64,000 nucleotides of DNA from Candidatus Latescibacterota bacterium (lineage in GTDB: Bacteria; Latescibacterota; UBA2968; UBA8231): contig OZ244561.1 in assembly GCA_965217585.1 (NCBI GenBank), positions 7,136,001 to 7,200,000 of the forward strand, read 5' to 3'. Numbering within the stretch: position 1 is the first letter of the stretch; every line of letters begins with the position of its first letter. Made by a program: the position numbers and the translations under genes. The notes below the pieces were generated by a model. The model was given only the letters and a program-made list of their open reading frames with translations, was not told the DNA's origin and ran no database searches. Positions 1-49,800 of the stretch are shown in pieces.

Positions 1-1
1 G

Positions 2-1282
2 CGTTGGTTAGCCGGAGAGGACGCCGCAGACGACAGTGCCGATGTAGAAGGAATCGGTGCAGAGGATGGCATTAGCGGGAACAGTTCGTCCAAGGTGGAA
101 CGTCAGATAATCCGATGGCGAGGGGTGGCCGAAACGGAATCCGAACACATCACAGCGGACCCTAGGACGATTCGTCCCGGCGATGTTATTGTGATCCCAG
201 CTAACCATCCGGGGCTAGCGCGTCAACTCGGAGACCTGCCGCCGGACGCCGACTTGGATGTGGGAGATCGCGCCTATCGGCTCGCCCGCGCTAAGCCCAT
301 CCTTCGCTTGCACCCGAAGTTAGTGGACGATTGGCCGGATTCCGTTACGGCTAAAGGTCCCGCAGACGAACTGCTAAAGGATCTGGAGCAGAAGTACGAC
401 GACGATCCGCATGAGGTCGGCAATGCCTTGAGGGAGCTTCTACAGGAACTGGCCGCCTCTGAATCGCTCCCAGAACACTGGTCTTGGTTGCCGAAAGCGG
501 CAAAAGAATTGAGCAAGGAATACTCCGGCTCCAAGCTGGCCCGTGCCTATCGCGCTGTCGGCGGCAAAAGTATCGTCCTCGTCGGGCGGCAGCGCATACC
601 GGAACTCACCCTCGAAGCCGACCACTTCAGCGATGAGGACGACGCTAGCGCGTCTGGGATCGGGCGTCCCGTCAAATTGTTAAGTCACCTGCCCGGCGTC
701 GAAGCGTTTGCCCGCCGTCATGCCTCGGGCTGCGGCTTGCCAGCGGACTTGGTCGAAGTTCTCGCCTGCGCTGGCCTGTTGCATGACTTGGGCAAGGCCG
801 ATCCTCGATTTCAGTCGTTATTGCGTGGTGGCACTCGCTGGTTGGGCGGGGAACTTCTCGCCAAGTCTGCCGAAATGCCGAGAAGTCCGGCAGCCTATGA
901 GAAGGCTCGGACCGCTTCCGGCTATCCGAAAGGTGGGCGGCACGAACTGCTTTCGGTGCGCTTGGCAGAAAGCGCGTCGATTCTTTTGCCGGAAAGGGAC
1001 GATCTGCGAGACTTGGTTCTGCATTTGATTGCCAGCCATCACGGCCACGGTCGGCCGTTCGCGCCGGTGGTGTGTGACGAGCAGGGCGAGGATGTAGATT
1101 TCGAGTTGCGCGGCCAACGGACGCACTGGTCTGGTCCCACCGGCCTTGAGCGTCTCGACTCCGGCGTCGCGGATCGCTATTGGCGGCTGGTGCGGCGCTA
1201 TGGCTGGTGGGGTTTGGCTTGGCTGGAATCTCTGCTGCGACTTGCTGATTGGCGGCAGAGCGAACAGGAGGAGACACAATGA
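2..1282 (+). CDS. cas3: Type I-G Cas3 helicase-nuclease, 3' part (gene starts upstream of window) with C-terminal HD domain
   Basis: Frame open from base 2. Contains HD-domain motifs SHLPGV, LLHDLGKADPRFQ, RHE, HHGHGRP, LRLADW at the C-terminus, the arrangement typical of I-G (I-U) Cas3; cas context. Confidence 0.9.
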   Translation, partial: RWLAGEDAADDSADVEGIGAEDGISGNSSSKVERQIIRWRGVAETESEHITADPRTIRPGDVIVIPANHPGLARQLGDLPPDADLDVGDRAYRLARAKPILRLHPKLVDDWPDSVTAKGPADELLKDLEQKYDDDPHEVGNALRELLQELAASESLPEHWSWLPKAAKELSKEYSGSKLARAYRAVGGKSIVLVGRQRIPELTLEADHFSDEDDASASGIGRPVKLLSHLPGVEAFARRHASGCGLPADLVEVLACAGLLHDLGKADPRFQSLLRGGTRWLGGELLAKSAEMPRSPAAYEKARTASGYPKGGRHELLSVRLAESASILLPERDDLRDLVLHLIASHHGHGRPFAPVVCDEQGEDVDFELRGQRTHWSGPTGLERLDSGVADRYWRLVRRYGWWGLAWLESLLRLADWRQSEQEETQ

Positions 1283-2208
1283 CCGCAAATGAATCAACTC
1301 CGGGGCTTTTGCTGAACGGACTTGACGGCAGCAATCCGCTCGGATTTCTCGCGGCCATTGGCACTGCGGTTGTCCTGCAAGATGTATTCCCAGAAATACG
1401 CCTTGGCTGGGAACAAATAGAGGGCGGTTGGAGGCCATCCTTGGCAGGTTGTGGCGACGATGAGCAGGAATTTGCGGAAAAACTCTCAGAAGCTCTAAAA
1501 GACGCACCCATGACTGTCTTTGATGTTGACAACAAGATGCCTTTTGACACCGAGAAATTTTCTCGCAAACTGCGAGATGTTCAGTGCTGTTCGTCTATTG
1601 CCGATCGTCGAGATGCCGATTTTCTGTCCAGCTTTGGAACCGAACTATATCCCGATGAGAAAAACGGACAGTTCCAAGATTCAAGGTTCAGGATGGTACG
1701 TAGCGGAGATAGTGCGGGACAAGGATTGCCGTTCTATGCCAAGGAAATGCGAAAAAAGGTCAGCATAGATCACATTCAACGCACTTTGTTTCACGCTTGG
1801 GATTACCAAGACACAGGGTATAGCCTGCGTTGGGACCCTATTGAAGATCAGCGGTATGCTCTGCGTTGGCGCGATCCGAGCAAGTCAAGCCAAGACACCA
1901 TGTTGGCGGCCAATAGCTTGGCGGTTGAGGCATTACAGTGGTTTCCGGTGGTAATGCCCGTTGGGAACCAAGCGCAAACTACGGGATTTCAGCGACTCAG
2001 GCGGCGCGAGACCTATTTCGTCTGGCCGATTTGGACCCCGATGGTGGGCATAGAAACTGTGCGTTCTCTGCTGGCCTTGGACGATCTTTGCAAAGAACCC
2101 GTACCCCGTTCATCCCTTGTCAAGAGAGGTATTGAGGAAGTTTATCGCAGTCAGCGCATCCAGCAAAGCCAGTACTACAGCAACTTCCTTGTTGCTGTCC
2201 CAGCGTGA
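1279..2208 (+). CDS. Type I-G associated Cas8g-like / Cas3-extension family protein
   Basis: ATGA overlap with the cas3 stop and AGGAGG RBS. GLDGSNPLGFLAAIG N-terminus and LRWDPIEDQRYALRW motif resemble the protein found after cas3 in I-G loci. Confidence 0.7.
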   Translation: MTANESTPGLLLNGLDGSNPLGFLAAIGTAVVLQDVFPEIRLGWEQIEGGWRPSLAGCGDDEQEFAEKLSEALKDAPMTVFDVDNKMPFDTEKFSRKLRDVQCCSSIADRRDADFLSSFGTELYPDEKNGQFQDSRFRMVRSGDSAGQGLPFYAKEMRKKVSIDHIQRTLFHAWDYQDTGYSLRWDPIEDQRYALRWRDPSKSSQDTMLAANSLAVEALQWFPVVMPVGNQAQTTGFQRLRRRETYFVWPIWTPMVGIETVRSLLALDDLCKEPVPRSSLVKRGIEEVYRSQRIQQSQYYSNFLVAVPA

Positions 2209-2387
2209 AACGCTTCGTGAACCAAGCCTCGGTTAGGAGCCGATGCTGATCTTCAGAGCAAGGCAATTAACTTGGGTATAGAAGTTCTCTGACAGATGAA
2301 ATTTGAAATTATTCCATAGCGTAGTAGGTTTACGGCGCATGTTGAACTCTTGTCATCGCCGTGCATTCCGATTGGATACCGCAATCT

Positions 2388-3857
2388 ATGAGCAAAGCAG
2401 TCTATTTGGCTGGTGATTTTTCTGGAATCCAGCGTTATGTGCTGGGTGTGAAGAGCGCGGGCAAAGCACAGGCGAAGCGCTTGCGAGCCCGGTCTTTCCT
2501 GCTCGAACTCTTTGAACATGCCGCACTTTGGACGGTAAAGGAACGTTTGCGTATTGCTGACGATGATGTCCTAGTCCGGGGTGGGGGTGGTTTCCTGATA
2601 AGGATTCCACCTGATACCGATCCCGTTCGCCTTGAGGAGATTCGTTCCGGCTTGCAACGCAAGCTGTGGGATGAATCCGGCGGAGAAGTCCAGTTCTCGT
2701 TGGGCTGGGCTGAGACGCCACTCGCCGCCCGCGCTCATCTGGAACTTCAGAAGCGCCGTATAGGAGCTTTCATGCTGCAAAGCAGCGGCGGTTGGAACCC
2801 GGCGGGTTGGAGCCAACCTTCACTTGACAAGCCGTGTGAAGTCTGCCGCCAATCTCCAGGACAGCAGAGCGTGCAGGATGAAGGTGAGGAAGTCCTACAT
2901 TGTAGAAGCTGTCTGGAGGCCCGCAAACTCGGTGAAAAGCTGACTCGGTGGAAATGGATGCGCCCAGGTGGCGGCTCAGTGCAAGCGCTGGGCGTTGGCT
3001 TCGAGCACGTGAACGATCAGGAGTCTGAGGCTTTTCGCGTGGGCCGCTGGATACCGCGTCATTCCGATTCCCGCGAACCGCTGACATTCCAAGAAATCGC
3101 AGAGCAAGCCCGTAGCGACCGTCGTTTGGCTGTGTTGAAAGCCGATGTGGACGACATGGGCGTCCGGGTCGGACAAATTGCCGGAGAAGACCAGTCGTAT
3201 AACCGGCTGCGGTCTTTCAGTTACAGTCTGCACGAGTTCTTCGGGCAGACAATTCAGGAATTGTTGGCAAAGTCATGGCCTTTGATCTATACGCTGTATG
3301 CCGGCGGGGACGATCTGCTGCTAGTTGGCCCTTGGGACGTTGTGCTCGACTTTGCGGGGTCTCTGGTAAGAAAGTTTGAGACGGGTCCGGCCCAAGAGTA
3401 TTCACCGCTAACCTTAAGTGCTGGAATCGCTCTAACCCCTTACCGCGTACCGATCCGTCACGCAGTCGAGCGTGCGGAGGAACTCTTGGAGTCGGCTAAG
3501 CAACGTCCGGGCAAGAATCGGTGCGCCGCCCTCGGGGCGGATTGGAGTTGGAAGCAACACGAATCTGTAGTAGGCGATGGCAAGCGGCTGGCGGACTGGG
3601 TTGGGGATGGAGTGGCTCCTCGCTCCCTACTACATCGTTTGCTGCGTCTCGCGGAGAGCAGCAAGCCTGTGCGAGTGGCTCGCTGGGCTTATCAAATCGA
3701 GCGCAACGTGCATCGACGCCACACCGACTTTCGTCGCTGGGCAAACCGTGTGATCGAATATCTAGGGCGCGACGAACAGCGCACAAACGAATTGGCGGCA
3801 AGTCTCCGCTATGCCTTGTTGGCAACACGACCGCGAAAGGAAGGACGCGATGAGTAG
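2388..3857 (+). CDS. cas10: Cas10/Csm1, compact and HD-less, with intact Palm2 cyclase motif
   Basis: Starts directly at Palm1 motif LAGDFSGIQRYV; Zn finger CEVC..CRSC; KADVDDMG and YAGGDDLLLVG (GGDD). ATG at 2388, alternative GTG at 2361. Confidence 0.92.
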   Translation: MSKAVYLAGDFSGIQRYVLGVKSAGKAQAKRLRARSFLLELFEHAALWTVKERLRIADDDVLVRGGGGFLIRIPPDTDPVRLEEIRSGLQRKLWDESGGEVQFSLGWAETPLAARAHLELQKRRIGAFMLQSSGGWNPAGWSQPSLDKPCEVCRQSPGQQSVQDEGEEVLHCRSCLEARKLGEKLTRWKWMRPGGGSVQALGVGFEHVNDQESEAFRVGRWIPRHSDSREPLTFQEIAEQARSDRRLAVLKADVDDMGVRVGQIAGEDQSYNRLRSFSYSLHEFFGQTIQELLAKSWPLIYTLYAGGDDLLLVGPWDVVLDFAGSLVRKFETGPAQEYSPLTLSAGIALTPYRVPIRHAVERAEELLESAKQRPGKNRCAALGADWSWKQHESVVGDGKRLADWVGDGVAPRSLLHRLLRLAESSKPVRVARWAYQIERNVHRRHTDFRRWANRVIEYLGRDEQRTNELAASLRYALLATRPRKEGRDE

Positions 3858-4380
3858 CATGGAGGATGCTATGAAAAAGGCGGGATTCAAACCGGAACGA
3901 CAACAGCGGCGAGATCTCGGCGGCGATAATCGTAACAGACCGCAAAGGGAAGCACTTCCGGAATTCCCAAGTTCGTACTTTGAAGTCGATCCACAAAGCC
4001 GAAAATACCTTCAACCTATATTCGTCGCCAAACAATCTGTCGATCGTTTGGCGAGGATATTGGGGAAGGAATCCAGACCGAAACTCACTACCGGCCAGAT
4101 GCGCCGCTTCTTCAATCACTGCCGCGAGATTGAACGTCAATTGAAAGTTGACGGCAGAAGCTGGCATCAAGTATCTGCCCGCTTCGAGGGACTCTGTTAC
4201 CAAGCTCAGTACGCAAAATCGGCGGGTAAGATACCCAAGGAATTTCAAGATTTCATCGATGACAACGTGAAACGGGTAGGCTCCGCGAAAGAGCCGGAAA
4301 GGGCCTTTCTGGACGGCTTTCTACCCCATTTCGAGGCATTGGTTGGCTTTGGGGCCGCTTATATGAGGGAGGTTTCCTGA
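3850..4380 (+). CDS. csm2: Csm2 (Cas11) small subunit
   Basis: LTTGQMRRFFN motif and C-terminal FEALVGF; lies between cas10 and csm3. Confidence 0.88.
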   Translation: MSSMEDAMKKAGFKPERQQRRDLGGDNRNRPQREALPEFPSSYFEVDPQSRKYLQPIFVAKQSVDRLARILGKESRPKLTTGQMRRFFNHCREIERQLKVDGRSWHQVSARFEGLCYQAQYAKSAGKIPKEFQDFIDDNVKRVGSAKEPERAFLDGFLPHFEALVGFGAAYMREVS

Positions 4381-4381
4381 C

Positions 4382-5053
4382 ATGCAAAGAACCGCTATTC
4401 ACACCATTACCTTTACCGCTCGCTGCGAAAGCGGTCTTCATATTGGAGGTTCGCAAGACGAGTTGGCAATTGGTGGGTCCGACAATCCGGTGATCAAGAA
4501 TCCAGAAACTCGTCAGCCCTATATCCCCGGTTCCTCGCTGAAGGGAAAGATGCGAGGCGAATTGGAGAAGCAATTGGGCCGATTCAGCGGTCGGGATAAT
4601 GATCGTCCGTGCAGTTGTGCAAAGGATGAATGCCCCGTTTGTCGGATATTTGGAGCGCACATGAACACCAGAAGCAATCTCGGCCCTTCCCGTATCATCG
4701 TCCGCGACGGTAGGCCCCTCACGGGTGTTCGCATCGAGAACAAAACGGAAAATGTCATAAATCGCCAAACTGGCGCGGCTCAACATCCGCGCTCAAACGA
4801 GCGGGTCGTTGAGGGAACAGAGTTTGGGATGCAGATCGTTCTACAAGTCTTCGATCTTGATAGAGATTTCTCGTACACGGACACCAACGGTGGCTCGCAT
4901 CGAGGCGACGAAGCCCTCCAAGCGGTCGTCGCTGATGGCTTGAATCTGGTGCAGATGACGGGTCTGGGCGGTGGGACAAGCCGGGGTTCAGGCGCGGTGA
5001 GTTTCGACGATTTCAAATTGGACGGCAATACATGGACCCATTGGTCCGTCTGA
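4382..5053 (+). CDS. csm3: Csm3 (Cas7) RAMP backbone RNase
   Basis: GLHIGG, GGSDNPV (catalytic Asp position), PYIPGSSLKGKMR, Zn-binding cysteines and G-rich loop GLGGGTSRGSG. Confidence 0.93.
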   Translation: MQRTAIHTITFTARCESGLHIGGSQDELAIGGSDNPVIKNPETRQPYIPGSSLKGKMRGELEKQLGRFSGRDNDRPCSCAKDECPVCRIFGAHMNTRSNLGPSRIIVRDGRPLTGVRIENKTENVINRQTGAAQHPRSNERVVEGTEFGMQIVLQVFDLDRDFSYTDTNGGSHRGDEALQAVVADGLNLVQMTGLGGGTSRGSGAVSFDDFKLDGNTWTHWSV

Positions 5054-5982
5054 GGCTGAAGCCTCTCGGGGTTTGGACCACGCCTTGGCAGGCGGATTCG
5101 CTGCTTGGCGCGATGGCGTGTGCATGGGCGCGTTCTCGGGGGCAGGATGCGCTCCAGCGGGACTTTTTGGAGCCGTGGCTCGCCCACGAGCCGCTGTTTG
5201 TCATCTCCGATGCTTTTCCTGGCGATTCTTTGCCAGCACCGGCGGGCCTGCCGTTATGGTGGGACTGGCCTTCGGAAGAACGCAAAACCGTCAAGAAATG
5301 TCGCTGGATGACTACGACCGACTTTCGTCGAGTCCAAGAGGGGAAAAAACCCAATCTAGAAGATCCCGGTATCTCTATCCGCGATCGCGTGCGGCTGCGC
5401 AATACCATCTCCCGCGTTTCCAATACCACGGGTGCTGGTGGTGAACTCTTTGAAGTGCCGTTTTCAAATCTCAGCAAGTCCGACGGCAGCCTGACCATTT
5501 TTGCTCGCGCTGCCGACGGTGGCTTGCAGATTTTGCTGGAGGCCTTGGAAATGCTGGGGCGGACCGGGTATGGTGCCGATGCCTCGGTGGGCCACGGCGG
5601 TTTTGAGCTAGACGGCGATCCAACTTCCTGTCCCGAACTGGATAATGTTCTTGGGGCTGACGGGTTCACATCCCTCTCAACGTTCCAGCCAGCGGCTACT
5701 GACCCAGTGGAAGGTTTCTGGCGACTCTTCGTCAAGTACGGAAAACTGGCCCCAGAGTTCCACTCTAGCGCCGTGTTCAAACGTCCACAGGTCATGCTGG
5801 CGGCCGGTGCCTGCTTCCGCACGAAACACCCTCCAAAACCTTTCTACGGTGCTCCGATTGGGCCGGAGCGCTTGCTTAGCAAAAGTGCCCGTGAATCGCT
5901 TGCCGCACGGGGCATTCACCCGGTTCAAGCGGCTTTCGCGCTCGCTGTTCCCATGATCTGGCTAAAGGGAACAGACGGGTGA
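5032..5982 (+). CDS. csm4: Csm4 (Cas5) RAMP
   Basis: ADSLLGA, ISDAFP, RNTISR and G-rich loop GYGADASVGHG; follows csm3. Confidence 0.88.
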   Translation: MDPLVRLRLKPLGVWTTPWQADSLLGAMACAWARSRGQDALQRDFLEPWLAHEPLFVISDAFPGDSLPAPAGLPLWWDWPSEERKTVKKCRWMTTTDFRRVQEGKKPNLEDPGISIRDRVRLRNTISRVSNTTGAGGELFEVPFSNLSKSDGSLTIFARAADGGLQILLEALEMLGRTGYGADASVGHGGFELDGDPTSCPELDNVLGADGFTSLSTFQPAATDPVEGFWRLFVKYGKLAPEFHSSAVFKRPQVMLAAGACFRTKHPPKPFYGAPIGPERLLSKSARESLAARGIHPVQAAFALAVPMIWLKGTDG

Positions 5983-6009
5983 GCTTACAGTTAAAGGATT
6001 GACGCTTAT

Positions 6010-7083
6010 ATGGCACACCTACTCATCACCACTGTTGGCACGTCTCTGCTAACCAACCGCGATGACCGTCCATGGGCAGGATGGAATGGGCGGGCTGGCG
6101 ACCCGTTGCCAGACGTAGTGGACGTAGATCAGTGGCTGGATCAGGCAGAGGTGGTCACAGCTAGCGCCGAAACTAATACCTTGTACGCCATTGGCGTCCA
6201 TGACTCAGATCATATCCTCTTCCTCCACTCCGACACACCAGAAGGGCGCTTTTGTTCAGAGCGGCTGCAACATTTCTACGCCAAGCGTTGCCGTCAAGTT
6301 TACGGTCGTTCGCTAACTGCCTTGGGGTACTCCCACGCTAGCTTCTCGCAAAAAGGGTTGAAAGTCTTGGTCGAAGAAGCCATCAAAGCCGTGCGTGAAG
6401 CGCGTAAAAAATCTCTTCAACCCGTATTTTGTGCCACAGGTGGGTTCAAGGCCGAAATCGCTTTTCTCAACTTATTGGGTGCCTTGTTAGAGGTCGAAGT
6501 GTACTACATCCACGAGCAATTTAGAGAGATTGTTCGCCTGCCTCGCTTGCCATTGAATTGGGATATGCAATGGGTTATAGAACGCCAGGATTTTTTTCAG
6601 TGGATTGATGACGAGCCACGTCCAAGCGCAGAGGTGGAGAACCGATTAAAGGCGCGCCCAGAACTTCGGCCGCTCATCGAAGATGATGCGGATGGAAACT
6701 CGTACCTCAATGCGGCGGGCGACTTGCTGTTTCGCGTTGCCAAGGAACGGTTGAGCCTTGAACCTCGTGCGACTTGGCCCGATGTGGTGGCGAGACCGCC
6801 GCAAGAAAAAGATCACCTTTCTGATGTGGAGCATCACCGTCCGAAAGGTTGGAAGAATTTCGTCTCTCGCCTTTGTGCGATTGATTGCGTAAGCCGAGTC
6901 TCTTATGATACGGCCGCCTTTGGCGGCGAAGTGGTCAAGGTGCTCGACGGTGCCAACGGCGTCATTGCGGTGCGATATGGTAAGGGCGACAAGGAGTTAC
7001 CCTTACGCATTGAGACATCTGCTCGTGGGACAGAGCAAACGGAGTTGGTTGAAGAATACATTGCACGGTGTCTTCGGAACTGA
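6010..7083 (+). CDS. CRISPR-associated CARF protein (APE2256-like) with additional C-terminal domain
   Basis: N-terminal TTVGTS, SAETNTL, HSDTPEG, ATGGFK and YYIHEQF..LP motifs of the APE2256 CARF family; directly downstream of the csm genes. Confidence 0.82.
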   Translation: MAHLLITTVGTSLLTNRDDRPWAGWNGRAGDPLPDVVDVDQWLDQAEVVTASAETNTLYAIGVHDSDHILFLHSDTPEGRFCSERLQHFYAKRCRQVYGRSLTALGYSHASFSQKGLKVLVEEAIKAVREARKKSLQPVFCATGGFKAEIAFLNLLGALLEVEVYYIHEQFREIVRLPRLPLNWDMQWVIERQDFFQWIDDEPRPSAEVENRLKARPELRPLIEDDADGNSYLNAAGDLLFRVAKERLSLEPRATWPDVVARPPQEKDHLSDVEHHRPKGWKNFVSRLCAIDCVSRVSYDTAAFGGEVVKVLDGANGVIAVRYGKGDKELPLRIETSARGTEQTELVEEYIARCLRN

Positions 7084-7179
7084 CCGCTTTGCGTAATTTA
7101 CATCAGGTTTTAAATACCTAAAGGCTTGAAGGCATGATTACTCCGCTGGTTGCTTTAACCATATAGGGAACGCCACCCC

Positions 7180-8892
7180 ATGCCTCACGACTCCCAACTC
7201 ACCCTACCTCTACCCCCGCCGCCAGTCGATGAGAATACGCCGCTGGTCCCGGCCCGCATGGTCAACGAATGGGTTTATTGCCCGCGGCTGGCCTATTTGG
7301 AATGGGTGGAAGGCGAGTGGGCTGAGAGCGGAGACACGGCTGAGGGGCGGCGCGCTCATGGGCGAGTTGATGAAGGTGGGGGTCGCTTGCCTGCGCCCGA
7401 CGAACTCGGCGAGGAGATGACCCGCGCCCGGGCCGTTACCCTTGCCTCGGAGCGGCTCGGCGTTATCGCCAAGATGGATGTCGTGGAGGCCGACGAGGGT
7501 ATCGCAATGCCGGTGGACTTCAAGAAAGGGAAGCGGCCCCACGTCGCCGCCGGAGCCTACGAGCCTGAGCGCGTCCAAATCTGCACCCAAGCCATGATCC
7601 TCGAAGACAATGGCTATAAGGTCGAGCAGGGGGTGCTTTGGTACGCTGGCTCACGCGAGCGGGTGCAGGTCGTTATCGACGACGAACTCCGCGCCCAGAC
7701 TTTGGAGGCGATTGCCGGCCTGCGATGGGCAGCGGCCAGTGGTCGTCGGCCACCGCCGCTTGAAAATAGCCCCAAGTGCCCGCGCTGTTCGCTGGCTGGC
7801 ATCTGCCTGCCGGATGAGACCAATCTGTTCCGCAAGGGGTATCCGCCGCGCCCGCTGAACCCGTCCGACGATCCGGCGCTGCCGCTCTACGTGCAAACGC
7901 CGGGGGCGCGGCTGCGCAAAAGCGGCGAGCGCTTGGTGGTGGAGACCAAAGAAGAGACCGTGGAAGTGCCCCTGATTGACGTTTCCCAAGTCGATCTGTT
8001 CGGCCCGGTCTCGGTGACTACGCCGGCTCTACACGCGCTGATGAACGCCGAGATTCCAGTGTCGTGGTTTTCTACGGGCGGCTGGTTCCTCGGCCACACC
8101 GTGGGGACTGGCAATGGCAATGTGGCCGTGCGCCAAGCCCAGTACCAAGCTGCTTTTGACGAGCCTCGCCGCCTCGCCTTTGCGCGCGACTTGGTGGCGG
8201 CTAAGGTGCGTAATGCGCGGACGATGCTGCGGCGCAACTGGCGTGTCAGTGGAGACGCGGAGGCGAAAAGCGACGTCTTGGTGCGATTACAGCGCATTGT
8301 CCAGCGGGTGCCCCGCGCTAAAGACGACCGTCAATTGCTCGGCATTGAGGGCGAGGCCGCGGCGATCTATTTCGCCTGTTTTGAGAACATGCTCACCGAG
8401 GGTGGGAAAGAGGATGTGCCCGCGTTCGCTTTTGCAAAGCGCAATCGGCGTCCGCCCACCGATCCGGTGAATGCCATGCTCTCGCTGGCTTATGCCTTGT
8501 TGACGCGGGTTTTCACGACCGCGATCTCGGCGACCGGCTTGGACCCTTACATGGGCCTCTACCATCGCCCGCGTCATGGTCGCCCGGCGCTGGCCCTCGA
8601 TTTGATGGAGCCATTTCGGCCTATTGTCGCGGACTCCTGCGTACTTCAGGCTATCAATAACGGCGAGGTCAAACCGGGGGATTTCGTATTCAACGGCCCG
8701 GCGTGTTCGCTAAAGACTAATGGGCGCAAGGCGTTTATCGCCGCGTTTGAGCGTCGTCTGGAGCAGGAAACCACGCATCCGCTTTTTGGCTATCGCGTCT
8801 CTATGCGGCGGCTGATTGAGGTGCAGGCTCGGTTGTTTGCCCGGCATTTGCAGGGCGAAATTGTCCCCTATCCGCATTATCTGCCCCGGTAG
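7180..8892 (+). CDS. cas1: Cas4-Cas1 fusion (type I-G adaptation)
   Basis: Cas4 motifs YCPRL, VDFKKG and CPRCSLAGIC, followed by Cas1 motifs LLGIEGEAAAIYF, NAMLSLAY and LALDLMEPFRP. Confidence 0.95.
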   Translation: MPHDSQLTLPLPPPPVDENTPLVPARMVNEWVYCPRLAYLEWVEGEWAESGDTAEGRRAHGRVDEGGGRLPAPDELGEEMTRARAVTLASERLGVIAKMDVVEADEGIAMPVDFKKGKRPHVAAGAYEPERVQICTQAMILEDNGYKVEQGVLWYAGSRERVQVVIDDELRAQTLEAIAGLRWAAASGRRPPPLENSPKCPRCSLAGICLPDETNLFRKGYPPRPLNPSDDPALPLYVQTPGARLRKSGERLVVETKEETVEVPLIDVSQVDLFGPVSVTTPALHALMNAEIPVSWFSTGGWFLGHTVGTGNGNVAVRQAQYQAAFDEPRRLAFARDLVAAKVRNARTMLRRNWRVSGDAEAKSDVLVRLQRIVQRVPRAKDDRQLLGIEGEAAAIYFACFENMLTEGGKEDVPAFAFAKRNRRPPTDPVNAMLSLAYALLTRVFTTAISATGLDPYMGLYHRPRHGRPALALDLMEPFRPIVADSCVLQAINNGEVKPGDFVFNGPACSLKTNGRKAFIAAFERRLEQETTHPLFGYRVSMRRLIEVQARLFARHLQGEIVPYPHYLPR

Positions 8893-8897
8893 CGAAT

Positions 8898-9191
8898 ATG
8901 GCCAACGAGCGTCTCTACATCGTTGCTTATGACATTGCCGAGCCGAAGCGTTGGCGGCGCGTGTTCAAGGTGATGAAAGGCTATGGACACTGGTTGCAGT
9001 TATCGATTTTCCAGTGTCGGCTGACGGCCCGGCGACGGGCTGAGATGACGGCGCGGTTGGAAGGTTTGATCAAATTGGCAGAGGATCACATTCTGATTTT
9101 GGATTTGGGGCCTGCTGACCAAGTTGATCCTCTGGTAGAAAGTCTGGGCAAGACGTATGAAGCGCCGAGTCGGCAGGCGACAATTGTTTAG
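8898..9191 (+). CDS. cas2: Cas2
   Basis: YIVAYDI and LQLSIFQC motifs; 97 aa, after cas1. Confidence 0.95.
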   Translation: MANERLYIVAYDIAEPKRWRRVFKVMKGYGHWLQLSIFQCRLTARRRAEMTARLEGLIKLAEDHILILDLGPADQVDPLVESLGKTYEAPSRQATIV

Positions 9192-9400
9192 CGGGGAATC
9201 TGCCGTGTCCCCTGCGAGTGCTCGGATGCAAAGAAAAAGGCCGGTAGCTCTCGCAATGCGCTTTCTATTTGTATTACAAGGAGATAGGTCGTATTATGAT
9301 ATGCGTTTGGCGAACAATTTGCATGTTCGAGAAGACAAAGCGGCCACCGCTCGCAAAAGGGGTGGAAAACCCAAGCCGCACAGGGAGTTCCGAAGGGACT
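9192..9400 (+). promoter_or_regulatory. CRISPR leader
   Basis: Non-coding 209 bp between cas2 and the first repeat, with AT-rich core and inverted GCGAG/CTCGC motifs; the degenerate repeat is at the opposite end of the array. Confidence 0.8.
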
Positions 9401-12400
9401 AATTTCCGGGGTGGAAACGCCCCGGCCTCATTGAAGCTACCACTTGAGTATTTGTGACAAGTTCCTCTTTATTAGCAATTTCCGGGGTGGAAACGCCCCG
9501 GCCTCATTGAAGCTCGTTCCACGGCATCATGTTCACCTTCTCGATCAACAATTTCCGGGGTGGAAACGCCCCGGCCTCATTGAAGCACGAATACGCCGAG
9601 ATGGAGTTCTTTTCTGAGGGCCAATTTCCGGGGTGGAAACGCCCCGGCCTCATTGAAGCTCGAGTTGAGGAAAAATATTTTTCTTAAATTTTTGTTAATT
9701 TCCGGGGTGGAAACGCCCCGGCCTCATTGAAGCTTGATGCTTTTGACGAGCGCCAACCCGCCCCGCGATAGCGGGAAATTTCCGGGGTGGAAACGCCCCG
9801 GCCTCATTGAAGCATCGCGTAAGCTGTCGAGAGGGGAACCTGCCCGCCGAAATTTCCGGGGTGGAAACGCCCCGGCCTCATTGAAGCGCGCAAGGTCGCG
9901 TCTTTGCTCCGCGGCGCTGGCGTAATTTCCGGGGTGGAAACGCCCCGGCCTCATTGAAGCGACATGCGCACGGATGCGGCCTCGGGTCATCGAAAGCAAT
10001 TTCCGGGGTGGAAACGCCCCGGCCTCATTGAAGCAGAAAAGGCCGATAAGTCTCGGAGCATAGCTGTCGAAAGAAATTTCCGGGGTGGAAACGCCCCGGC
10101 CTCATTGAAGCGAGGTCGTATGGTTTGACCTGCCTACACCTACGGGCCAATTTCCGGGGTGGAAACGCCCCGGCCTCATTGAAGCCCGGATGGCCCACCA
10201 TTGAAGGCGGCGAATCGTGAAAATTTCCGGGGTGGAAACGCCCCGGCCTCATTGAAGCATTTCTAAGCTCCTTTAAATAAAAATCTAATATAATAATTTC
10301 CGGGGTGGAAACGCCCCGGCCTCATTGAAGCCCTCTGCAGAAGAATTCGCTGCAAAAAACTGAATACAATTTCCGGGGTGGAAACGCCCCGGCCTCATTG
10401 AAGCTCTTGCTGGTTTTGTTGCAGGTTCCTTACGGTCGCCGAATTTCCGGGGTGGAAACGCCCCGGCCTCATTGAAGCCGATATGCTTCTATATACATTT
10501 TTTGCCTTAGACAAAATTTCCGGGGTGGAAACGCCCCGGCCTCATTGAAGCAGGCAAAGCACCCCTATACTCACCCTCACGACAGGAAATTTCCGGGGTG
10601 GAAACGCCCCGGCCTCATTGAAGCCACCTATACCAGACTCTCTATGTATGCGCCCCGGCTGCAATTTCCGGGGTGGAAACGCCCCGGCCTCATTGAAGCC
10701 TTTCATGATTTATCCTTTCACATTTAGCTACTGAAATTTCCGGGGTGGAAACGCCCCGGCCTCATTGAAGCTCTTGGATGTTGGGGTAAGTTTCCTTACC
10801 GACGCTATAATTTCCGGGGTGGAAACGCCCCGGCCTCATTGAAGCGCTCCTTCTTGAATGAGTTGGATAGTTGATGCAGGCGCAATTTCCGGGGTGGAAA
10901 CGCCCCGGCCTCATTGAAGCGAGTGAGGATCGAGACATCCCCACAGGTCTCGGCACAATTTCCGGGGTGGAAACGCCCCGGCCTCATTGAAGCTCTCGCT
11001 CACAACGCGCAAAAGCTCACCGCAGCCGACAATTTCCGGGGTGGAAACGCCCCGGCCTCATTGAAGCTCCGATAGCAAGCTGTTTCTGTTGGGCAATCCG
11101 CAAGAATTTCCGGGGTGGAAACGCCCCGGCCTCATTGAAGCTAGCTATTGCAGGCTCCGCAAAATCCGTTCTCGGTAATTTCCGGGGTGGAAACGCCCCG
11201 GCCTCATTGAAGCACCGCTTGGGGCAATACCTATGGTCGTATGGGCCGCAATTTCCGGGGTGGAAACGCCCCCGCCTCATTGAAGCTTCGGCAACGCGAA
11301 CATCAGCGCCAAAGCCTCCGCAAATTTCCGGGGTGGAAACGCCCCGGCCTCATTGAAGCGATCGACTGCTTGCGCGACTCAAAATCGTTGATGACAATTT
11401 CCGGGGTGGAAACGCCCCGGCCTCATTGAAGCTCTTCAGCAGACCTTCAAAAAACCTTCAAATGAGAATAATTTCCGGGGTGGAAACGCCCCGGCCTCAT
11501 TGAAGCTTGGCCTCATGGGAAACAAGATACAGAAAGTTGCTCAATTTCCGGGGTGGAAACGCCCCGGCCTCATTGAAGCTTCTAGGCGGGCGGTGGAAAG
11601 GGGGATCTTCTGCATCAATTTCCGGGGTGGAAACGCCCCGGCCTCATTGAAGCTTCTTGTGAGAGGCCCTGCAGCCGGAACGAGTCGGCAATTTCCGGGG
11701 TGGAAACGCCCCGGCCTCATTGAAGCTTCTTATCGGCTAAATCCTCTTAGTCTAGGTTTGGCCCAATTTCCGGGGTGGAAACGCCCCGGCCTCATTGAAG
11801 CTACCAATTAGCGATTTAGAATTGATGCAGGAGAAAGACAATTTCCGGGGTGGAAACGCCCCGGCCTCATTGAAGCGTGCGGAGGGCGTTGACGTGCCAC
11901 GGCGATAGAAATAATTTCCGGGGTGGAAACGCCCCGGCCTCATTGAAGCACCGCTTATGGAGAGTAAAAGTTGCAGGGGGGTACGAATTTCCGGGGTGGA
12001 AACGCCCCGGCCTCATTGAAGCTGAGCCTCCCCGGTCGATTGTATCAGCATCTTCCCCAAATTTCCGGGGTGGAAACGCCCCGGCCTCATTGAAGCAATC
12101 ACACTGGGACGCTGCAAAGCCAATTTGACACGGCCAATTTCCGGGGTGGAAACGCCCCGGCCTCATTGAAGCATGGCAGCCACCGCGCTTTCGAGGATCT
12201 CCAAGGGGTAATTTCCGGGGTGGAAACGCCCCGGCCTCATTGAAGCTTGTATTCGACGAAGTGCTCGGAGTTGGCACCCGAAGGGGGCGCGAATTTCCGG
12301 GGTGGAAACGCCCCGGCCTCATTGAAGCTTGTGGTTGATGACGAACCCCTGGTTCTCTATCTCGCAATTTCCGGGGTGGAAACGCCCCGGCCTCATTGAA

Positions 12401-15400
12401 GCAGCTCCAACAGCGACTTGAGCATCGGCTTTTCGCCGGTAAATTTCCGGGGTGGAAACGCCCCGGCCTCATTGAAGCAGCCAACGAGATAAACGAATGG
12501 TTTCAGGCGACGGGAATTTCCGGGGTGGAAACGCCCCGGCCTCATTGAAGCGGCTATGGGCGTTGAAGTATGCTCCAGGTGCGACGAGAATTTCCGGGGT
12601 GGAAACGCCCCGGCCTCATTGAAGCTTGATGTGTGTGAACGTCCGATAAATATCGTCGCGTGAATTTCCGGGGTGGAAACGCCCCGGCCTCATTGAAGCT
12701 GGAAAAAAGGTCGCGCAGATCCACATCCAAATCCCAATTTCCGGGGTGGAAACGCCCCGGCCTCATTGAAGCTTTGAAACGAGTGTGTCATTTGGTGTCG
12801 GTTGGTCCAATTTCCGGGGTGGAAACGCCCCGGCCTCATTGAAGCCAAATAACGAATCGAACACCGAAGCATCATAGCCAAATTTCCGGGGTGGAAACGC
12901 CCCGGCCTCATTGAAGCTGCCATTCGGCATGTTTTTCCAGCTGGTAGGCCAAGAATTTCCGGGGTGGAAACGCCCCGGCCTCATTGAAGCGAGAAAATGA
13001 TGGCGTTCAAGGCATTCCATACGGCCTAATTTCCGGGGTGGAAACGCCCCGGCCTCATTGAAGCTATCGCCTCGCTCTCCCCCGCTCAAATCGACCAGTT
13101 CACACAAATTTCCGGGGTGGAAACGCCCCGGCCTCATTGAAGCGTGGCCTCAATCAGAGTATCGTCCAGCTCAACAATACGGATTTCCGGGGTGGAAACG
13201 CCCCGGCCTCATTGAAGCCCGTATGACGACCGGCATCTCCGTATCCTCTCAGGCCTATTTCCGGGGTGGAAACGCCCCGGCCTCATTGAAGCGATTGGAG
13301 TTCAGCAAATGAAAGTCCTCATCGCCTGCATTTCCGGGGTGGAAACGCCCCGGCCTCATTGAAGCTTATCAGCGACGAGCTGCCCAACGGCACGGCCTCC
13401 CGATTTCCGGGGTGGAAACGCCCCGGCCTCATTGAAGCTCAGTATCAGTGCGAGCGGATACCCGATGTTCTGACAAATTTCCGGGGTGGAAACGCCCCGG
13501 CCTCATTGAAGCTGTACATGCTGGATACCCTTACCCTTGCAGGTGGTACAATTTCCGGGGTGGAAACGCCCCGGCCTCATTGAAGCTTGGGCTTACGCTG
13601 CCGGTAACAGTCGGCTGTCCTGCATTTCCGGGGTGGAAACGCCCCGGCCTCATTGAAGCCAGCAAAACAGGGGTAGCGACGCATCTGCATTGCACAATTT
13701 CCGGGGTGGAAACGCCCCGGCCTCATTGAAGCGGCCTGACGGGCAAGACGATCAAGGAAATCTACGTCATTTCCGGGGTGGAAACGCCCCGGCCTCATTG
13801 AAGCCTGTCGTTGATCGCGTAGAGCTGGCCGTTGTGGTTGGTCATTTCCGGGGTGGAAACGCCCCGGCCTCATTGAAGCTGTGATACCCGGTGTTGTCTA
13901 AGGCTACGTTCAGCCCGATTTCCGGGGTGGAAACGCCCCGGCCTCATTGAAGCGCGGTGAGATTGAGCACGGGCGTCGTTTTGAAAAAGATTTCCGGGGT
14001 GGAAACGCCCCGGCCTCATTGAAGCAAATAGCATTTTTTTTGTACGTGATAACTTCCTTAGATTTCCGGGGTGGAAACGCCCCGGCCTCATTGAAGCTCC
14101 CCCGAAGGCATCGAAGGGAACGTCTGGAATGTCCGATTTCCGGGGTGGAAACGCCCCGGCCTCATTGAAGCACACCAAAGGCAGCAACCTATCAGCCGAT
14201 GAGGTCATTTCCGGGGTGGAAACGCCCCGGCCTCATTGAAGCCGTATCTCATGGTCAAATCTTCCATCAACTTCTGCCCATTTCCGGGGTGGAAACGCCC
14301 CGGCCTCATTGAAGCCGTATCTCATGGTCAAATCTTCCATCAACTTCTGCCCATTTCCGGGGTGGAAACGCCCCGGCCTCATTGAAGCATGTCGTTGACG
14401 TAGAACATTTCATTGCGGATCGGGGCATTTCCGGGGTGGAAACGCCCCGGCCTCATTGAAGCTGGCCACCGTAGGTTGTCCGTATATCTTTCCAAGGTGT
14501 CATTTCCGGGGTGGAAACGCCCCGGCCTCATTGAAGCGCTGGGGTATTGCGGTCAAAGAATCGCTGTAGTAGCCCATTTCCGGGGTGGAAACGCCCCGGC
14601 CTCATTGAAGCTTGTACAGCTTGGCAAAGGAGCGGAACTGATCGGCTGGATTTCCGGGGTGGAAACGCCCCGGCCTCATTGAAGCCCGCAGGAGACATAT
14701 GTCCATATAGTGCAAAACTAAAATTTCCGGGGTGGAAACGCCCCGGCCTCATTGAAGCAGGTGTCGGTGGATTTACCCCAACCCATAGCGAGAGATTTCC
14801 GGGGTGGAAACGCCCCGGCCTCATTGAAGCACGGCTCAAGATTTTTCGCATATAGGCTACCTCGGCGAAATTTCCGGGGTGGAAACGCCCCGGCCTCATT
14901 GAAGCTGCCATCGGCGGACATTCATATCCTCAGACTGCATCCATTTCCGGGGTGGAAACGCCCCGGCCTCATTGAAGCACAGTGATCCTAATTTGTCTGA
15001 CAACAAAGGCAGACCATTTCCGGGGTGGAAACGCCCCGGCCTCATTGAAGCGAGGCCATGTCTCCTGCTTCGGAGTCGGAATTGCCGATTTCCGGGGTGG
15101 AAACGCCCCGGCCTCATTGAAGCAGCTCATCAGTGCGGCGACGCAACTCCCCTATCAGGTCATTTCCGGGGTGGAAACGCCCCGGCCTCATTGAAGCTTG
15201 AACACGCGCTCCATGTAGTCCGCCAGATCGCCCATTTCCGGGGTGGAAACGCCCCGGCCTCATTGAAGCTGCAAGAGGGACTTGAGATACGCCCGCTTGT
15301 TCAAAATATTTCCGGGGTGGAAACGCCCCGGCCTCATTGAAGCCACGGCGGTGGAGTTAATGACGCCCTCATGACTCCGTTATTTCCGGGGTGGAAACGC

Positions 15401-16004
15401 CCCGGCCTCATTGAAGCGCCGTCTCGTCGCACCAGGTCGTATCGTGCTGCGGGCATTTCCGGGGTGGAAACGCCCCGGCCTCATTGAAGCTCGATACCGA
15501 CGATGTAAAAGCAGTCCACCTGTTGCGATTTCCGGGGTGGAAACGCCCCGGCCTCATTGAAGCGCCGTCTCGTCGCACCAGGTCGTATCGTGCTGCGGGC
15601 ATTTCCGGGGTGGAAACGCCCCGGCCTCATTGAAGCCTCTTGGGAATATAGGATAGTCAAACACATTGCCATGATTTCCGGGGTGGAAACGCCCCGGCCT
15701 CATTGAAGCAAGAAATTCCGGTATCGCGCCCTGTTGACCGTGATCGAATTTCCGGGGTGGAAACGCCCCGGCCTCATTGAAGCAAGAGCAACGACTCATC
15801 CGAGATACCGCCCTGCTGCCATTTCCGGGGTGGAAACGCCCCGGCCTCATTGAAGCCTCAATCCGGCAAGCTCATTTACCACTGCCATGCCCTATTTCCG
15901 GGGTGGAAACGCCCCGGCCTCATTGAAGCTACTACGTCTACGAAGACACCGAAGCCGGGTCTAACCGGATTTCCGGGGTGGAAACGCCCCGATCTCATTG
16001 AAGC
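9401..16004 (+). CRISPR. CRISPR array, 90 repeats / 89 spacers, repeat (A)ATTTCCGGGGTGGAAACGCCCCGGCCTCATTGAAGC
   Basis: Manual count of 90 repeats; spacers average about 37 nt. Hairpin CCGGGGTG-GAAA-CGCCCCGG and 3' ATTGAAGC handle are typical of I-G; last repeat (15969-16004) is degenerate. Confidence 0.98.
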
Positions 16005-16053
16005 GCTCCAATCGAGTTGGGTGATTGTATCGCTTCTGAGAAGAGATTATCTT

Positions 16054-46805: not shown

Positions 46806-49800
46806 ATGATAGGACAGCGCTTGGTGCCGTGGCCCCATGTAGCGTCCAGGCCCAAGCTTTGGACGACAATTAATCTTCATAAGTCATTAATAAACAATGT
46901 TTTACCCCCCCCCCGAATTTTAGGGTCGCGGGGTCGCGCCAGAGTTGGGCCGGTGATTCCTTCAAATAAGGCTGTCAGGCCGGCCCGGCTCCCGCGGCTT
47001 CTCGCCCTCTCCGCCGCCGCCGCGGTGCTGCTCGTGCTCTCCGCCGCCCTTCCCGCCACGGCGCTGCCCCCCAGGCCGACGGGTTTCGCCGTGTCGAACG
47101 GCAACGGGCAGGTGACGCTCACCTGGGACGCGCCGGCGGAGGACGCGGATATCTGGCACCACGAGTACCGCTTCAAGACCACGGGCGACTACAACGAGTG
47201 GACGAAGATCGACGACAGCGGGGTGGGCAAGATCCACGAGGACTGGGTCGTGGTGACGGGCCTGACCAACGACGTGGCCTACACGTTCCAGTTGCGCATA
47301 GTGAACATAGACGGCAACGGCAACGGGGCGACGGCCGGTCCGGCGACGCCGAGGTCCGGCGTCTGCGGGCGCACCGAGCAGGTGCGGGACGCGATCGTGG
47401 CTGGGACCGCCGACCTCCGCGTGTCGGACTGCGCCGACGTGACGAGGGCGGACCTGGCCGGCGTGATGTCTCTGGATTTCGCCTCTGTTGTCATCAAGTC
47501 CCTGCAGCCGGGCGACTTCTCGGGCCTGACCGCGCTGAAGGATCTCACTCTGAGCGGCAACGAGCTCACCTCGCTTCCCGCCGGCGTGTTCTCCGACCTG
47601 ACCGCGCTGAAGGATCTCACTCTGAGCGACAACGAGCTCAGTTCGCTTCCCGTCGGCGCGTTCTCCGGCCTGACCGCGCTGACGGATCTCAATCTGGACC
47701 TCAACGAGCTCACCTCGCTTCCCGCCGGCGTGTTCTCCGGCCTGACCACGCTGAAGGATCTCCGTCTGGTCAGCAACAAGCTCAGTTCGCTTCCCGCCGG
47801 CGTGTTCTCCGGCCTGACCGCGCTGACGGATCTCTCTCTCTTCCGCAACAAGCTCACCTCGCTTCCCGCCGGCGTGTTCTCCGACCTGACCGCGCTGACG
47901 TTTCTCAATCTGGAATCCAACGAGCTCACCTCGCTTCCCGCCGGCGTGTTCTCCGGCCTGACCGTGCTGAGGGCTCTCCGTCTGCGTTACAACAAGCTCA
48001 GTTCGCTTCCCGCCGGTGTGTTCTCCCGCCTGACCGCGCTGACGGATCTCCGTCTGAGTTCCAACGAGTTCACCTCGCTTCCCGCCGGCGTGTTCTCCGG
48101 CCTGACCGCGCTGACGAATCTCTCTCTGATCGGCACCAAGCTCAGTTCGCTTCCCGCCGGCGTGTTCTCCGGCCTGACCGCGCTGACGTCGCTCTATCTG
48201 CGCGAAAACACCGTAGACCCGCTGCCGCTGACCGTGACGCTGGAGAGGAACCCGGATGCCGTCGAGATCCGCGCGGTGGTGCTGACCGCGGCGCCGTTCG
48301 CGGTTCCGCTGGTCGTGAGCGTGGCGAACGGCAGCCTCGCGGGCGGGGCGGCCACGATCACGGTCCCGATCGGTGCGCGGGAGAGCGCCTGGGTCGGGGT
48401 GACCCGCACGCCCGGCACGGCCGGGGCGGTGACCGCGGACATCGACCTGACCCCCCAGCCGATCCTGCCCGACAAACACGATGGCTATGAGTTCGTCAAG
48501 TCCGCGAGCGACCTGCCGCTGACGGTGCTGGACGTGCCGGGCGCGCCGGCTGCGCCGTCGGTGTCGGCCGCGTCGTCCTCCAGCCTGACGGTCATGTGGT
48601 CGGCGCCGGACGACGGGGGCTCGGCCATCACGGACTACGACGTGCAATACCGGGCAGGCACCAGCGGCGACTGGAGCGACGGGGGCCACACCGGCACGGC
48701 CACCACGGCGACGCTCACGGGCCTTTCGGCGAGCACGTCCTATCAGGTGCAGGTGCGGGCGACCAACGCCGACGGCACCGGCTCGTGGTCGGACTCGGGC
48801 AGCGGCAGGACGGAGGACGCCAACGCGGTCCCGACGTTCATGTCGCCGCCGGCGTTCGACGCGGCGGAAAACCAGACGGTGGCCGGCACGGTGGCGGCGA
48901 CCGACAGGGACGAGGAGGACAGCATCGAGGGCTACGCGATCACCGGCGGCGCAGACCGGAGTTTCTTCTCGATCGACGCGACGTCCGGGGAGCTGACGTT
49001 CGACGCGGCACCGAACTACGAGGACGCCAAGGACCTTGTGAGTGTCGATCCGGCCAATGCCGCCGGCAACAACCAATACGTGGTGGTAGTGACGGCGACC
49101 AGCGGCGCTGGGACACGGGAGAAGACGGCGACGCAGACGATCACGGTGAGAGTGACCGACGTGGACACCGAGGCACCGGGCAAGCCGGGCGCGCCGACGG
49201 TGACGCCGGCGTCGGTGTCGAAGCTGACGGTGAACTGGTCGGCGCCGGCCAACGCGGGCCCGGCGATCACCGACTACGACGTGCGCTACCGGGCGGGCAA
49301 CAGCGGGGGCTGGACGGACGGCAACCACAGCGGCGCCGCCGTCACGGCGACGCTCATGGGCCTGTCGGAGAACACCTCCTACCAGGTGCAGGTGCGGGCG
49401 ACCAACGCCGAGGGCACCGGCGCCTGGTCGAACGCGGGCAGCGGCACGACGGACGCCAACGCGGTGCCGACGTTCACCTCTTCGGCGACGTTCGACGCGG
49501 CGGAGAACCAGACTTCGGCGGGCGAGGTGGTGGCGACGGACTCCGACACGGGCGACGACATCACCGGCTACGCGATCACCGGCGGCGCGGACCGGGATTT
49601 CTTCTCGATCGGGGCGACGTCGGGGGCGCTGACGTTCGACGCGGCGCCCAACTACGAGGACGCGAAGGACCAGGGCAGCAACAACACCTACGTGGTGGAG
49701 GTTACGGCGACCAGCGGCGCGGGCGAGCGGGAGAAGACGGCGACGCAGACGATCACGGTGAGAGTGACCGACGTGGACACCGAGGCACCGGGCAAGCCGG

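Follow-up and report, generated by a model that had tools for sequence, protein, structure and literature searches.

Can a Csm effector dispense with Csm5, with a Cas6 of its own and with the HD domain of its Cas10? This question is raised by four adjacent genes, cas10, csm2, csm3 and csm4, in a stretch of 64,000 nt (positions 7,136,001-7,200,000 of contig OZ244561.1, forward strand; G000:C1 in our numbering), which is referred to as the window and stems from Candidatus Latescibacterota bacterium GCA_965217585.1 (genome size 7.32 Mb, completeness 94.6%). An earlier reading of the letters alone (the sequence-only reading) had proposed a minimal four-gene effector of a type III CRISPR system. 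We conclude that the genes probably represent a working, conserved and reduced III-A-like (Csm) lineage, composed of an HD-less Cas10, Csm2, Csm3 and Csm4 without Csm5 or its own Cas6, which is an add-on to type I-G loci. The best reading of the gene content is that the module would depend on type I-G for the processing of its CRISPR RNA (crRNA), for the array and for adaptation.

The four-gene Csm module

Families were assigned with Pfam and NCBIfam profiles, all over the curated cut-offs, and Csm1 to Csm4 of the window all scored above the NCBIfam cut-offs for III-A:

2388..3857, + strand: cas10/csm1, 489 aa, with Palm1, zinc finger, Palm2 with GGDD and a C-terminal helical domain (TIGR02578, 265.8 bits, cut-off 170; PF22335; PF18211)
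3811..4380, + strand: csm2 (Cas11 small subunit), up to 189 aa (PF03750, 42.7 bits, cut-off 24.8; TIGR01870, 41.8 bits, cut-off 30.6)
4382..5053, + strand: csm3 (Cas7 backbone RNase), 223 aa (TIGR02582, 163.4 bits, cut-off 90)
5032..5982, + strand: csm4 (Cas5 subunit), 316 aa (TIGR01903, 83.2 bits, cut-off 55)

The start of csm2 is uncertain (ATG at 3811, 3850 or 3859), and its product carries an N-terminal extension of ~75 aa ahead of the Csm2 domain. The genes csm3 and csm4 overlap by 22 nt, and the csm4 stop codon (5980-5982) is followed after 27 nt by the ATG of a CARF gene (6010), a gap that leaves no room for csm5, as had been noted from the sequence.

Cas10 counts 489 aa from the ATG at 2388; an upstream GTG at 2361 would yield 498 aa, and in an alignment of 26 homologues these begin at the methionine equivalent to the ATG. 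The Palm1 motif GDFSGIQ occupies residues 9-15. The zinc-finger cysteines C150, C153, C172 and C175, the D253-V-D-D256 motif and G306-G-D-D309, which is part of the cyclase motif A-G-G-D-D at 305-309, are each kept in at least 90% of the 26 homologues, with 10 of these 12 positions invariant. As the family profile aligns in one continuous stretch to residues 234-777 of the 784-aa Csm1 of T. onnurineus (PDB profile match), only the HD domain is lacking, and its absence (~230 aa) is the chief cause of the size deficit; the aligned part comprises 484 versus 544 residues, a shortfall of ~60 that is distributed as gaps between the zinc finger and Palm2 and within Palm2. An AlphaFold2 (AF2) model (predicted local distance difference test, pLDDT, 83.4; predicted template-modelling score 0.81) matched III-A Csm1 structures in Foldseek with template-modelling (TM) scores of 0.72-0.77 on the query and ~0.5 on the target, and all of the top 50 hits were III-A Csm1. 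No split HD gene was found upstream of cas10, where the neighbouring gene, ending at 2208, encodes a complete protein of family NF049934. An HD-less Cas10 of ~489 aa that starts at Palm1 and keeps the zinc finger, DxD and GGDD, as described in the sequence-only reading, was thus recovered by alignment, profile and fold. Its supposedly short C-terminal domain was not, as this part of the alignment stops only a few residues short of the C terminus of T. onnurineus Csm1. The term "ultra-compact" is overstated, since the small size reflects mostly the missing HD domain, a feature shared by 35% of III-A loci (PMC11229360). Only 39% of 1113 type III loci have an HD domain, the share in III-A being 65% (PMC11229360); an HD-less Cas10 is therefore ordinary and not new.

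Asp34 of Csm3 matches the aspartate that solved Csm3 proteins conserve, and every one of 24 aligned rows has it, in agreement with the earlier claim of a retained catalytic position, and the protein carries a four-cysteine knuckle. Because the catalytic aspartate is kept, cleavage of target RNA by Csm3 is expected, and the proposal of a "signalling-only" complex is not supported.

Csm5 absence and conservation of the layout

In III-A systems Csm5, a second Cas7-like subunit, caps the crRNA at its 3' end. A search of the whole 7.32-Mb genome with the Csm5 profile TIGR01899 gave nothing over the cut-off, only a 14.5-bit match of 15 residues inside Csm3; no csm5 was found elsewhere in the genome. 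For comparison, related loci were collected from one genome per species, which led to 77 loci (L-numbers below) from Latescibacterota, Dehalococcoidia, Binatia, Acidobacteriota, Spirochaetia, Opitutales, Rhodothermales and further groups. Cas10 of the 33 close loci (L003-L035) is 48-90% identical to that of the window, except for L030, L031 and L034 at 34-41%. A hidden Markov model (HMM) seeded on two Csm5 proteins detected no Csm5-like open reading frame (ORF) in any of these 33 loci, nor in a second clade of short Cas10 proteins. The same HMM was positive in ten distant loci (L039, L055, L057, L060, L063, L067, L070, L073, L074 and L077). In nine of them Cas10 is full-length (795-888 aa), and in L074 it is cut by the contig end; Cas10 of all ten is 21-36% identical to the window protein. 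As TIGR01899 also scores the Csm5 of L060 at 94 bits and that of L070 at 58 bits, the model works on such material. Of 24 genomes bearing the module, one (G019) had a TIGR01899 match over the cut-off, at a distance of more than 1 Mb from the module, and the other matches in these genomes were pieces of 17-25 residues, each within a Csm3-sized frame.

A word-indexed search with Cas10 led to 668 homologous proteins at E<=1e-5. Identity is 54-99% for the best 120, which include 116 proteins of 473-541 aa and two fragments. In an exhaustive search of a library of representatives at 50% identity, 248 Cas10 representatives were found at E<=1e-30, and among the best 150, 70 have 440-600 aa, five 601-700 aa and 43 more than 700 aa, the other 32 being shorter fragments. 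The order cas10-csm2-csm3-csm4 is found in all of L003-L035 wherever the contig permits, and with the CARF gene added it recurs across several phyla. A quick FastTree phylogeny of 66 Cas10 sequences placed the window in a clade (support 99) of 34 rows, all without Csm5, of which 32 are short and two (L037, L078) have 769 aa; ten further short Cas10 proteins, likewise Csm5-less, form a separate clade, and for several rows recorded as long and lacking Csm5 the contigs are too short to tell. The ratio of non-synonymous to synonymous substitution rates (dN/dS) is 0.06-0.35 for cas10, csm2, csm3 and csm4 (versus six relatives) and ~0.12 for the CARF gene (versus two relatives with an ortholog). The Cas10 homologues are thus under purifying selection and the window copy is not decayed; its closest homologues are not full-length proteins accompanied by csm5, which would have pointed to decay, as they count ~490-500 aa. 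Homologues, gene order, dN/dS and the lack of Csm5 together show the four-gene layout to be a conserved natural state instead of local damage. In public annotation one of 14 members of the lineage carried a name, namely "hypothetical protein".

A different arrangement was observed in L048-L054 (Lachnospiraceae and Hungatella metagenome-assembled genomes, MAGs), where cas6b, cas10 (755-777 aa), csm2, csm3 and csm4 are followed by the array; Csm5 was not detected there, and none of the three CARF kinds distinguished below lies within 2.5 kb. The long Cas10 proteins of the Csm5-less loci L078, L048, L045 and L071 have an N-terminal extension of ~200 aa, possibly an HD domain, for which Pfam gave no match.

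The type I-G setting and Csb2

Positions 1-16005 of the window (+ strand) belong to one CRISPR-Cas locus, which starts ~5.2 kb upstream of the window. With Cas3g, Csb1/Cas7g, Csb2 and a Cas4-Cas1 fusion, all identified as profile matches, this locus is of type I-G. Outside the four csm genes it comprises the following features (L002 denotes the stretch covering the I-G genes upstream of the window):

L002:12761-13969, just upstream of the window: csb1/cas7g (TIGR02570, 74.3 bits)
L002:13969-16329, equal to G000:C1:7131969-7134329: csb2, a Cas5-Cas6 fusion, 786 aa (TIGR02165, 299.4 bits)
1..1282, + strand: 3' part of cas3g, the I-G helicase-nuclease (TIGR02621, 749.9 bits, cut-off 400); the complete gene is L002:16229-19282, up to 1017 aa
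1249..2208, + strand: "Cas3-extension family" protein NF049934, 319 aa (212.8 bits, cut-off 65)
6010..7083, + strand: CARF effector of the APE2256/TIGR02619 family, 357 aa (PF09651, 99.7 bits)
7180..8892, + strand: cas4g/cas1g fusion, 570 aa (NF049935, 777.1 bits, cut-off 560)
8898..9191, + strand: cas2, 97 aa (PF09827, TIGR01573)
9400..16005, + strand: CRISPR array of ~90 repeats of 36 nt (ATTTCCGGGGTGGAAACGCCCCGGCCTCATTGAAGC) with a period of 72-80 nt

No ORF for Cas8g1/Csx17 was found between L002:12761 and window position 9191. The NF049934 protein occupies the position that Cas8g has in other I-G variants; it belongs to no Pfam family, and a protein atlas search returned the same name only.

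Cas6 is often supplied in trans in type III systems. In the host genome Cas6 (PF01881) gave no match, and the only Cas6-type domains are those of Csb2 and of a weak Cas6 at a distant III-D-like locus. Csb2 (TIGR02165) was found over the cut-off in all 24 module-bearing genomes, in none of 14 controls and, in a sample of 151 genomes from the phylum of the window, in 18, a contrast that is descriptive and not statistical as the genomes are mutually related; three of the 151 have the compact Cas10, and Csb2 is present in all three. When at least 9.5 kb of upstream DNA was available, Csb2 lay within the locus in 21 of 28 cases, and in 13 loci it abuts cas10, its end lying at most ~50 nt away or overlapping. 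In two loci from Dehalococcoidia (L017:9143-9997 and L023:8734-9597) the gene directly upstream of cas10 encodes just the Cas6-like C-terminal half of Csb2 as a separate protein of 284-287 aa, which is the sole Csb2 match in both genomes; this suggests that the function needed is crRNA processing and not that of the Cas5-like half.

The window repeat consists of a hairpin followed by CCTC and ATTGAAGC. Together with ~18 related loci it shares 36-nt repeats with a stem of 6-9 bp, the arms of which covary, then CCYC and ATTGAAGC with rare single changes. For Csb2 of T. sulfidiphilus, the excerpted text of Shangguan et al. (PMC9638904) describes a cut 4 nt 3' of the hairpin, an 8-nt 5' handle and a protein that remains on the 3' hairpin, and it locates Csb2 on the I-G backbone at the 3' end. 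By analogy, the repeat geometry of the window fits such a cut with an 8-nt handle.

The 786 aa of the Csb2 at this locus are explained by an insert of ~300 aa between the Cas5-like and Cas6-like halves, which also occurs in L012, L013 and L016 and shows a weak phosphoribosyltransferase match (PF00156, E ~1e-3) and a VMVDDFVGQGGT-type loop. In several genomes of the phylum, Csb2 frames measure 788-818 aa.

Does another protein take the place of the Csm5 cap, so that the effector would have five subunits? Csb2 on an uncut 3' hairpin, as suggested in the sequence-only reading, or a repeat-associated mysterious protein (RAMP) of the III-D-like locus would be candidates, and we regard this as doubtful. 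The invariable presence of Csb2 in module-bearing genomes, its position next to cas10 in 13 loci and its published residence on the 3' hairpin, at the end of the I-G backbone (PMC9638904, as excerpted), argue for the former, while the Cas5-like RAMP half is dispensable in two of the 24 genomes (L017, L023) and Csb2 is encoded far off in 7 of the 28 loci. A RAMP cap would be favoured by the second type III locus of the host, which carries several RAMP genes at ~1.96 Mb; that locus is unrelated, and most relatives are not shown to have one. A specific form of this idea, modelled on Cas6 in Cascade and in our view rather unlikely, is that a stable fifth subunit, either Csb2 or (as in L017 and L023) its Cas6 half alone, would remain bound to the untrimmed 3' hairpin and cap the Csm3 filament instead of Csm5, and that one pool of Csb2-processed crRNA would arm both the I-G Cascade and the mini-Csm complex. 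A complex prediction of Csm3 (residues 1-213) with full-length Csb2 gave a score of 0.01 against a mark of 0.32, run without controls, and speaks neither for nor against binding.

Predicted signalling and relation to known systems

Among the 30 close loci with a csm4 ORF, the gene after csm4 encodes a CARF protein in 27: 22 are of the Csm6-type (CARF-HEPN), four belong to the APE2256/TIGR02619 family and one is TM1812-type. The conserved cyclase motifs and this regular downstream CARF gene fit the signalling by cyclic oligoadenylate (cOA) predicted in the sequence-only reading. The family of the window CARF protein (~355 aa) gave 597 matches, of which the best 120 are 58-94% identical. When the protein was compared with the PDB by phmmer, the best matches were the Cami1 structures 8phb and 8phj (3.5e-10 for 8phb), limited to residues 50-250. 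Foldseek with its AF2 model (pLDDT 85.9) likewise led to Cami1 (8phj/8phb, E 5e-14 to 6e-13, TM 0.48-0.55), with the ring nuclease Sis0811 as the next-best fold match. Cami1 combines a CARF sensor with a C-terminal RelE-type, ribosome-dependent RNase domain. The overall identity to Cami1 is only 18-19%. Among type III effectors, Cami1 is listed with those activated by cyclic tetra-adenylate, cA4 (PMC11229360).

From these data the following mechanism may be proposed. Csb2 would cut the shared pre-crRNA 4 nt past the repeat hairpin and leave the 8-nt 5' handle AUUGAAGC, which Csm4 and Cas10 would hold, several copies of Csm3 and Csm2 covering the spacer of ~37 nt. Such a complex would assemble without Csm5. 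Binding of a complementary transcript would switch on the Palm cyclase of Cas10, and the cOA formed, probably cA4, would activate the Cami1-like CARF protein encoded 27 nt downstream, or in most relatives a Csm6-type CARF-HEPN RNase instead. Cleavage of the bound RNA through Asp34 of Csm3 would then end the signal. I-G Cascade and Cas3 would attack DNA separately with the same spacers, with Cas4/Cas1-Cas2 and the array common to both arms. The sequence-only reading had left DNA cleavage to Cas3; the locus does have a I-G effector cassette, and nothing ties Cas3 to the Csm module beyond the shared crRNA, so this assignment is not upheld.

Alternatively, the module might be mainly a transcript sensor that tunes I-G, for example through priming or regulation, instead of an interference arm in its own right, or its Cas10 might produce a signal other than cOA. 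We consider this improbable. It would agree with the tight and repeated nesting of the module between I-G effector and adaptation genes and with its pairing with two different I-G cassettes: in a comparison of L003:1718-16801 with window positions 1-9191, the module and Cas4/Cas1-Cas2 are 89-95% identical (Cas10 89%, Csm4 94%, Cas4/Cas1 95%; CARF 93%), and the I-G cassette of L003 is of the Geobacter type (cas3g-cas8g1/csx17-csb1-csb2) with a Cas3g only 29% identical to that of the window. The type III module therefore moves with the adaptation genes and the array while the cassettes are swapped. Against a mere sensor stand the CARF effectors of known interference kinds (Csm6-type HEPN, Cami1-like) in 27 of 30 loci, as well as L010, where the module and Csm6 occur with no I-G genes within 10 kb; against another signal stands that neither CorA nor another marker of signalling by S-adenosylmethionine-AMP (SAM-AMP) was noticed next to the module. 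The idea that the copy is decaying or inert, left over from a canonical III-A locus after loss of HD, csm5 and cas6, was rejected as very improbable, since, despite deletion remnants and split genes in some related loci, none of the four ORFs is broken, purifying selection acts on them, the catalytic motifs are conserved, the architecture recurs in the 33 close loci from several phyla, the ~90 repeats are near-identical and the canonical Csm5-bearing relatives are only distant.

Several points weigh against the preferred reading of a working Csm lineage without Csm5 that relies on I-G for its crRNA. The seven loci without a nearby Csb2 would need crRNA processing in trans. Both HMMs could miss a Csm5 that has diverged strongly, though the operon has no room for it, and the Cas10 tree came with long-branch warnings. 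Damage occurs in some relatives: L006 has a truncated Csm3, L026, L029, L032, L064 and L068 have a split Cas10, and L036, L038, L069 and L076 are deletion remnants in which, for example, the first 35-188 residues of Cas10 are fused to the csm4 end. Either the module can decay, then, or the assemblies concerned are faulty. Three of the 30 close loci have none of the three CARF kinds after csm4, and the Cami1-like assignment in the window is a lead at the level of the overall fold. Csm5 of S. epidermidis recruits RNase R and PNPase for trimming of the crRNA 3' end, according to the excerpted part of PMC9762709. The same paper rates the value of crRNA maturation as "likely nominal".

Compared with canonical III-A systems (S. 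thermophilus, S. epidermidis, L. lactis, E. italicus, T. onnurineus, M. tuberculosis), the module has the same four Csm families, GGDD, the Csm3 aspartate and a downstream CARF gene, and canonical Csm1 proteins are the closest matches of its Cas10 in sequence and fold. It differs by a Cas10 of 489 aa versus 756-816 aa in solved Csm1 proteins, by the absence of HD, Csm5 and its own Cas6, and by its position within a I-G locus, the array and Cas4/Cas1-Cas2 of which it would use. Reductive evolution and the use of Cas6 or crRNA from other loci are also described for III-A2, III-F, III-G, III-H as well as III-I in the excerpts of PMC12669027. Assignment to III-A2 was rejected, as this subtype is there said to lack Cas11 and often to have NucC, whereas the window has Csm2 and a CARF protein. 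III-F, III-G, III-H as well as III-I, in which the cyclase is lost or inactive and CARF or SAVED proteins are missing, were rejected in view of the retained GGDD and the CARF gene after csm4; III-F generally has an HD domain and lacks the cyclase motifs (PMC11229360). A type III effector using crRNA processed by a type I enzyme has precedents in the excerpted accounts of Haliangium ochraceum III-B, reconstituted with Csb2 as Cas6 (bioRxiv 10.1101/2023.06.23.546230), and of Marinomonas III-B with I-F (PMC5576922). Unlike the four-gene Csm module interleaved with I-G genes, those are complete six-subunit Cmr complexes from separate loci. The I-G locus of Mycobacterium heckeshornense (csb1-csb2-cas3-hypothetical-cas1-cas2) shows the same cassette order with an unnamed protein after cas3, and the excerpted part of PMC10333696 describes no type III module there.

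In the literature searched, neither a natural Csm5-less Csm module nor a nested I-G/III-A locus is described, in line with the suggestion of a hitherto undescribed III-A variant; the supplements of PMC12669027 and PMC11237760 (data set of "seven hybridized systems") may list such loci. The sole mentions of Csm5 absence in that literature are deletion studies of S. epidermidis csm5, and the term "I-G" does not appear in the main text of the 2025 classification as excerpted (PMC12669027). Surveys have probably missed the lineage because it resides mostly in MAGs and because a large type III survey omitted genomes marked incomplete and loci with a Cas10 of fewer than 500 residues (PMC11229360).

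If active, the module would be a naturally minimal cOA-signalling Csm effector of four genes and 3.6 kb, with Csb2 alone for guide processing, and could provide type III RNA-detection assays with a simpler chassis. It also offers a natural test of the need for a Csm5 cap and for trimming of the crRNA 3' end. The repeated close genetic linkage, on a single array, of one arm that targets DNA with another that senses RNA bears on the question of how type III backs up type I when phages escape by mutation of the protospacer-adjacent motif (PAM) or seed.

As for expression, a promoter and terminator scan of window positions 1-9500 gave counts no higher than in shuffled sequence. Three public RNA libraries from two studies contain contigs that are 90-99% alike over parts of cas10, csm2, csm3, csm4 and cas4/cas1, which come from related strains and are no proof of transcription; one contig of 3096 nt covers positions 3640-5976 and then runs into unlike sequence, and is no proof of a single transcript. 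The CARF gene was not covered by these contigs, a gap that carries no weight.

The second, unrelated type III locus of the host is III-D-like and was found in L088 (G000:C1:1958001-1978000), with genes at L088:2104-17044 that encode the weak Cas6, a fusion of CARF with a sigma54 activator, an 875-aa TIGR03986 RAMP with a cold-shock-like N-terminus, a 547-aa Cas10, Csx10, Csx7, Csx19 and Cas1. Further downstream in the window, an ORF of 3979 aa (46806-58745, + strand) contains leucine-rich repeats, at least 16 fibronectin-III domains and seven cadherin domains, and this repeat-domain ORF explains the ~70% G+C and the AT skew of 0.15-0.30 at 48-58 kb.

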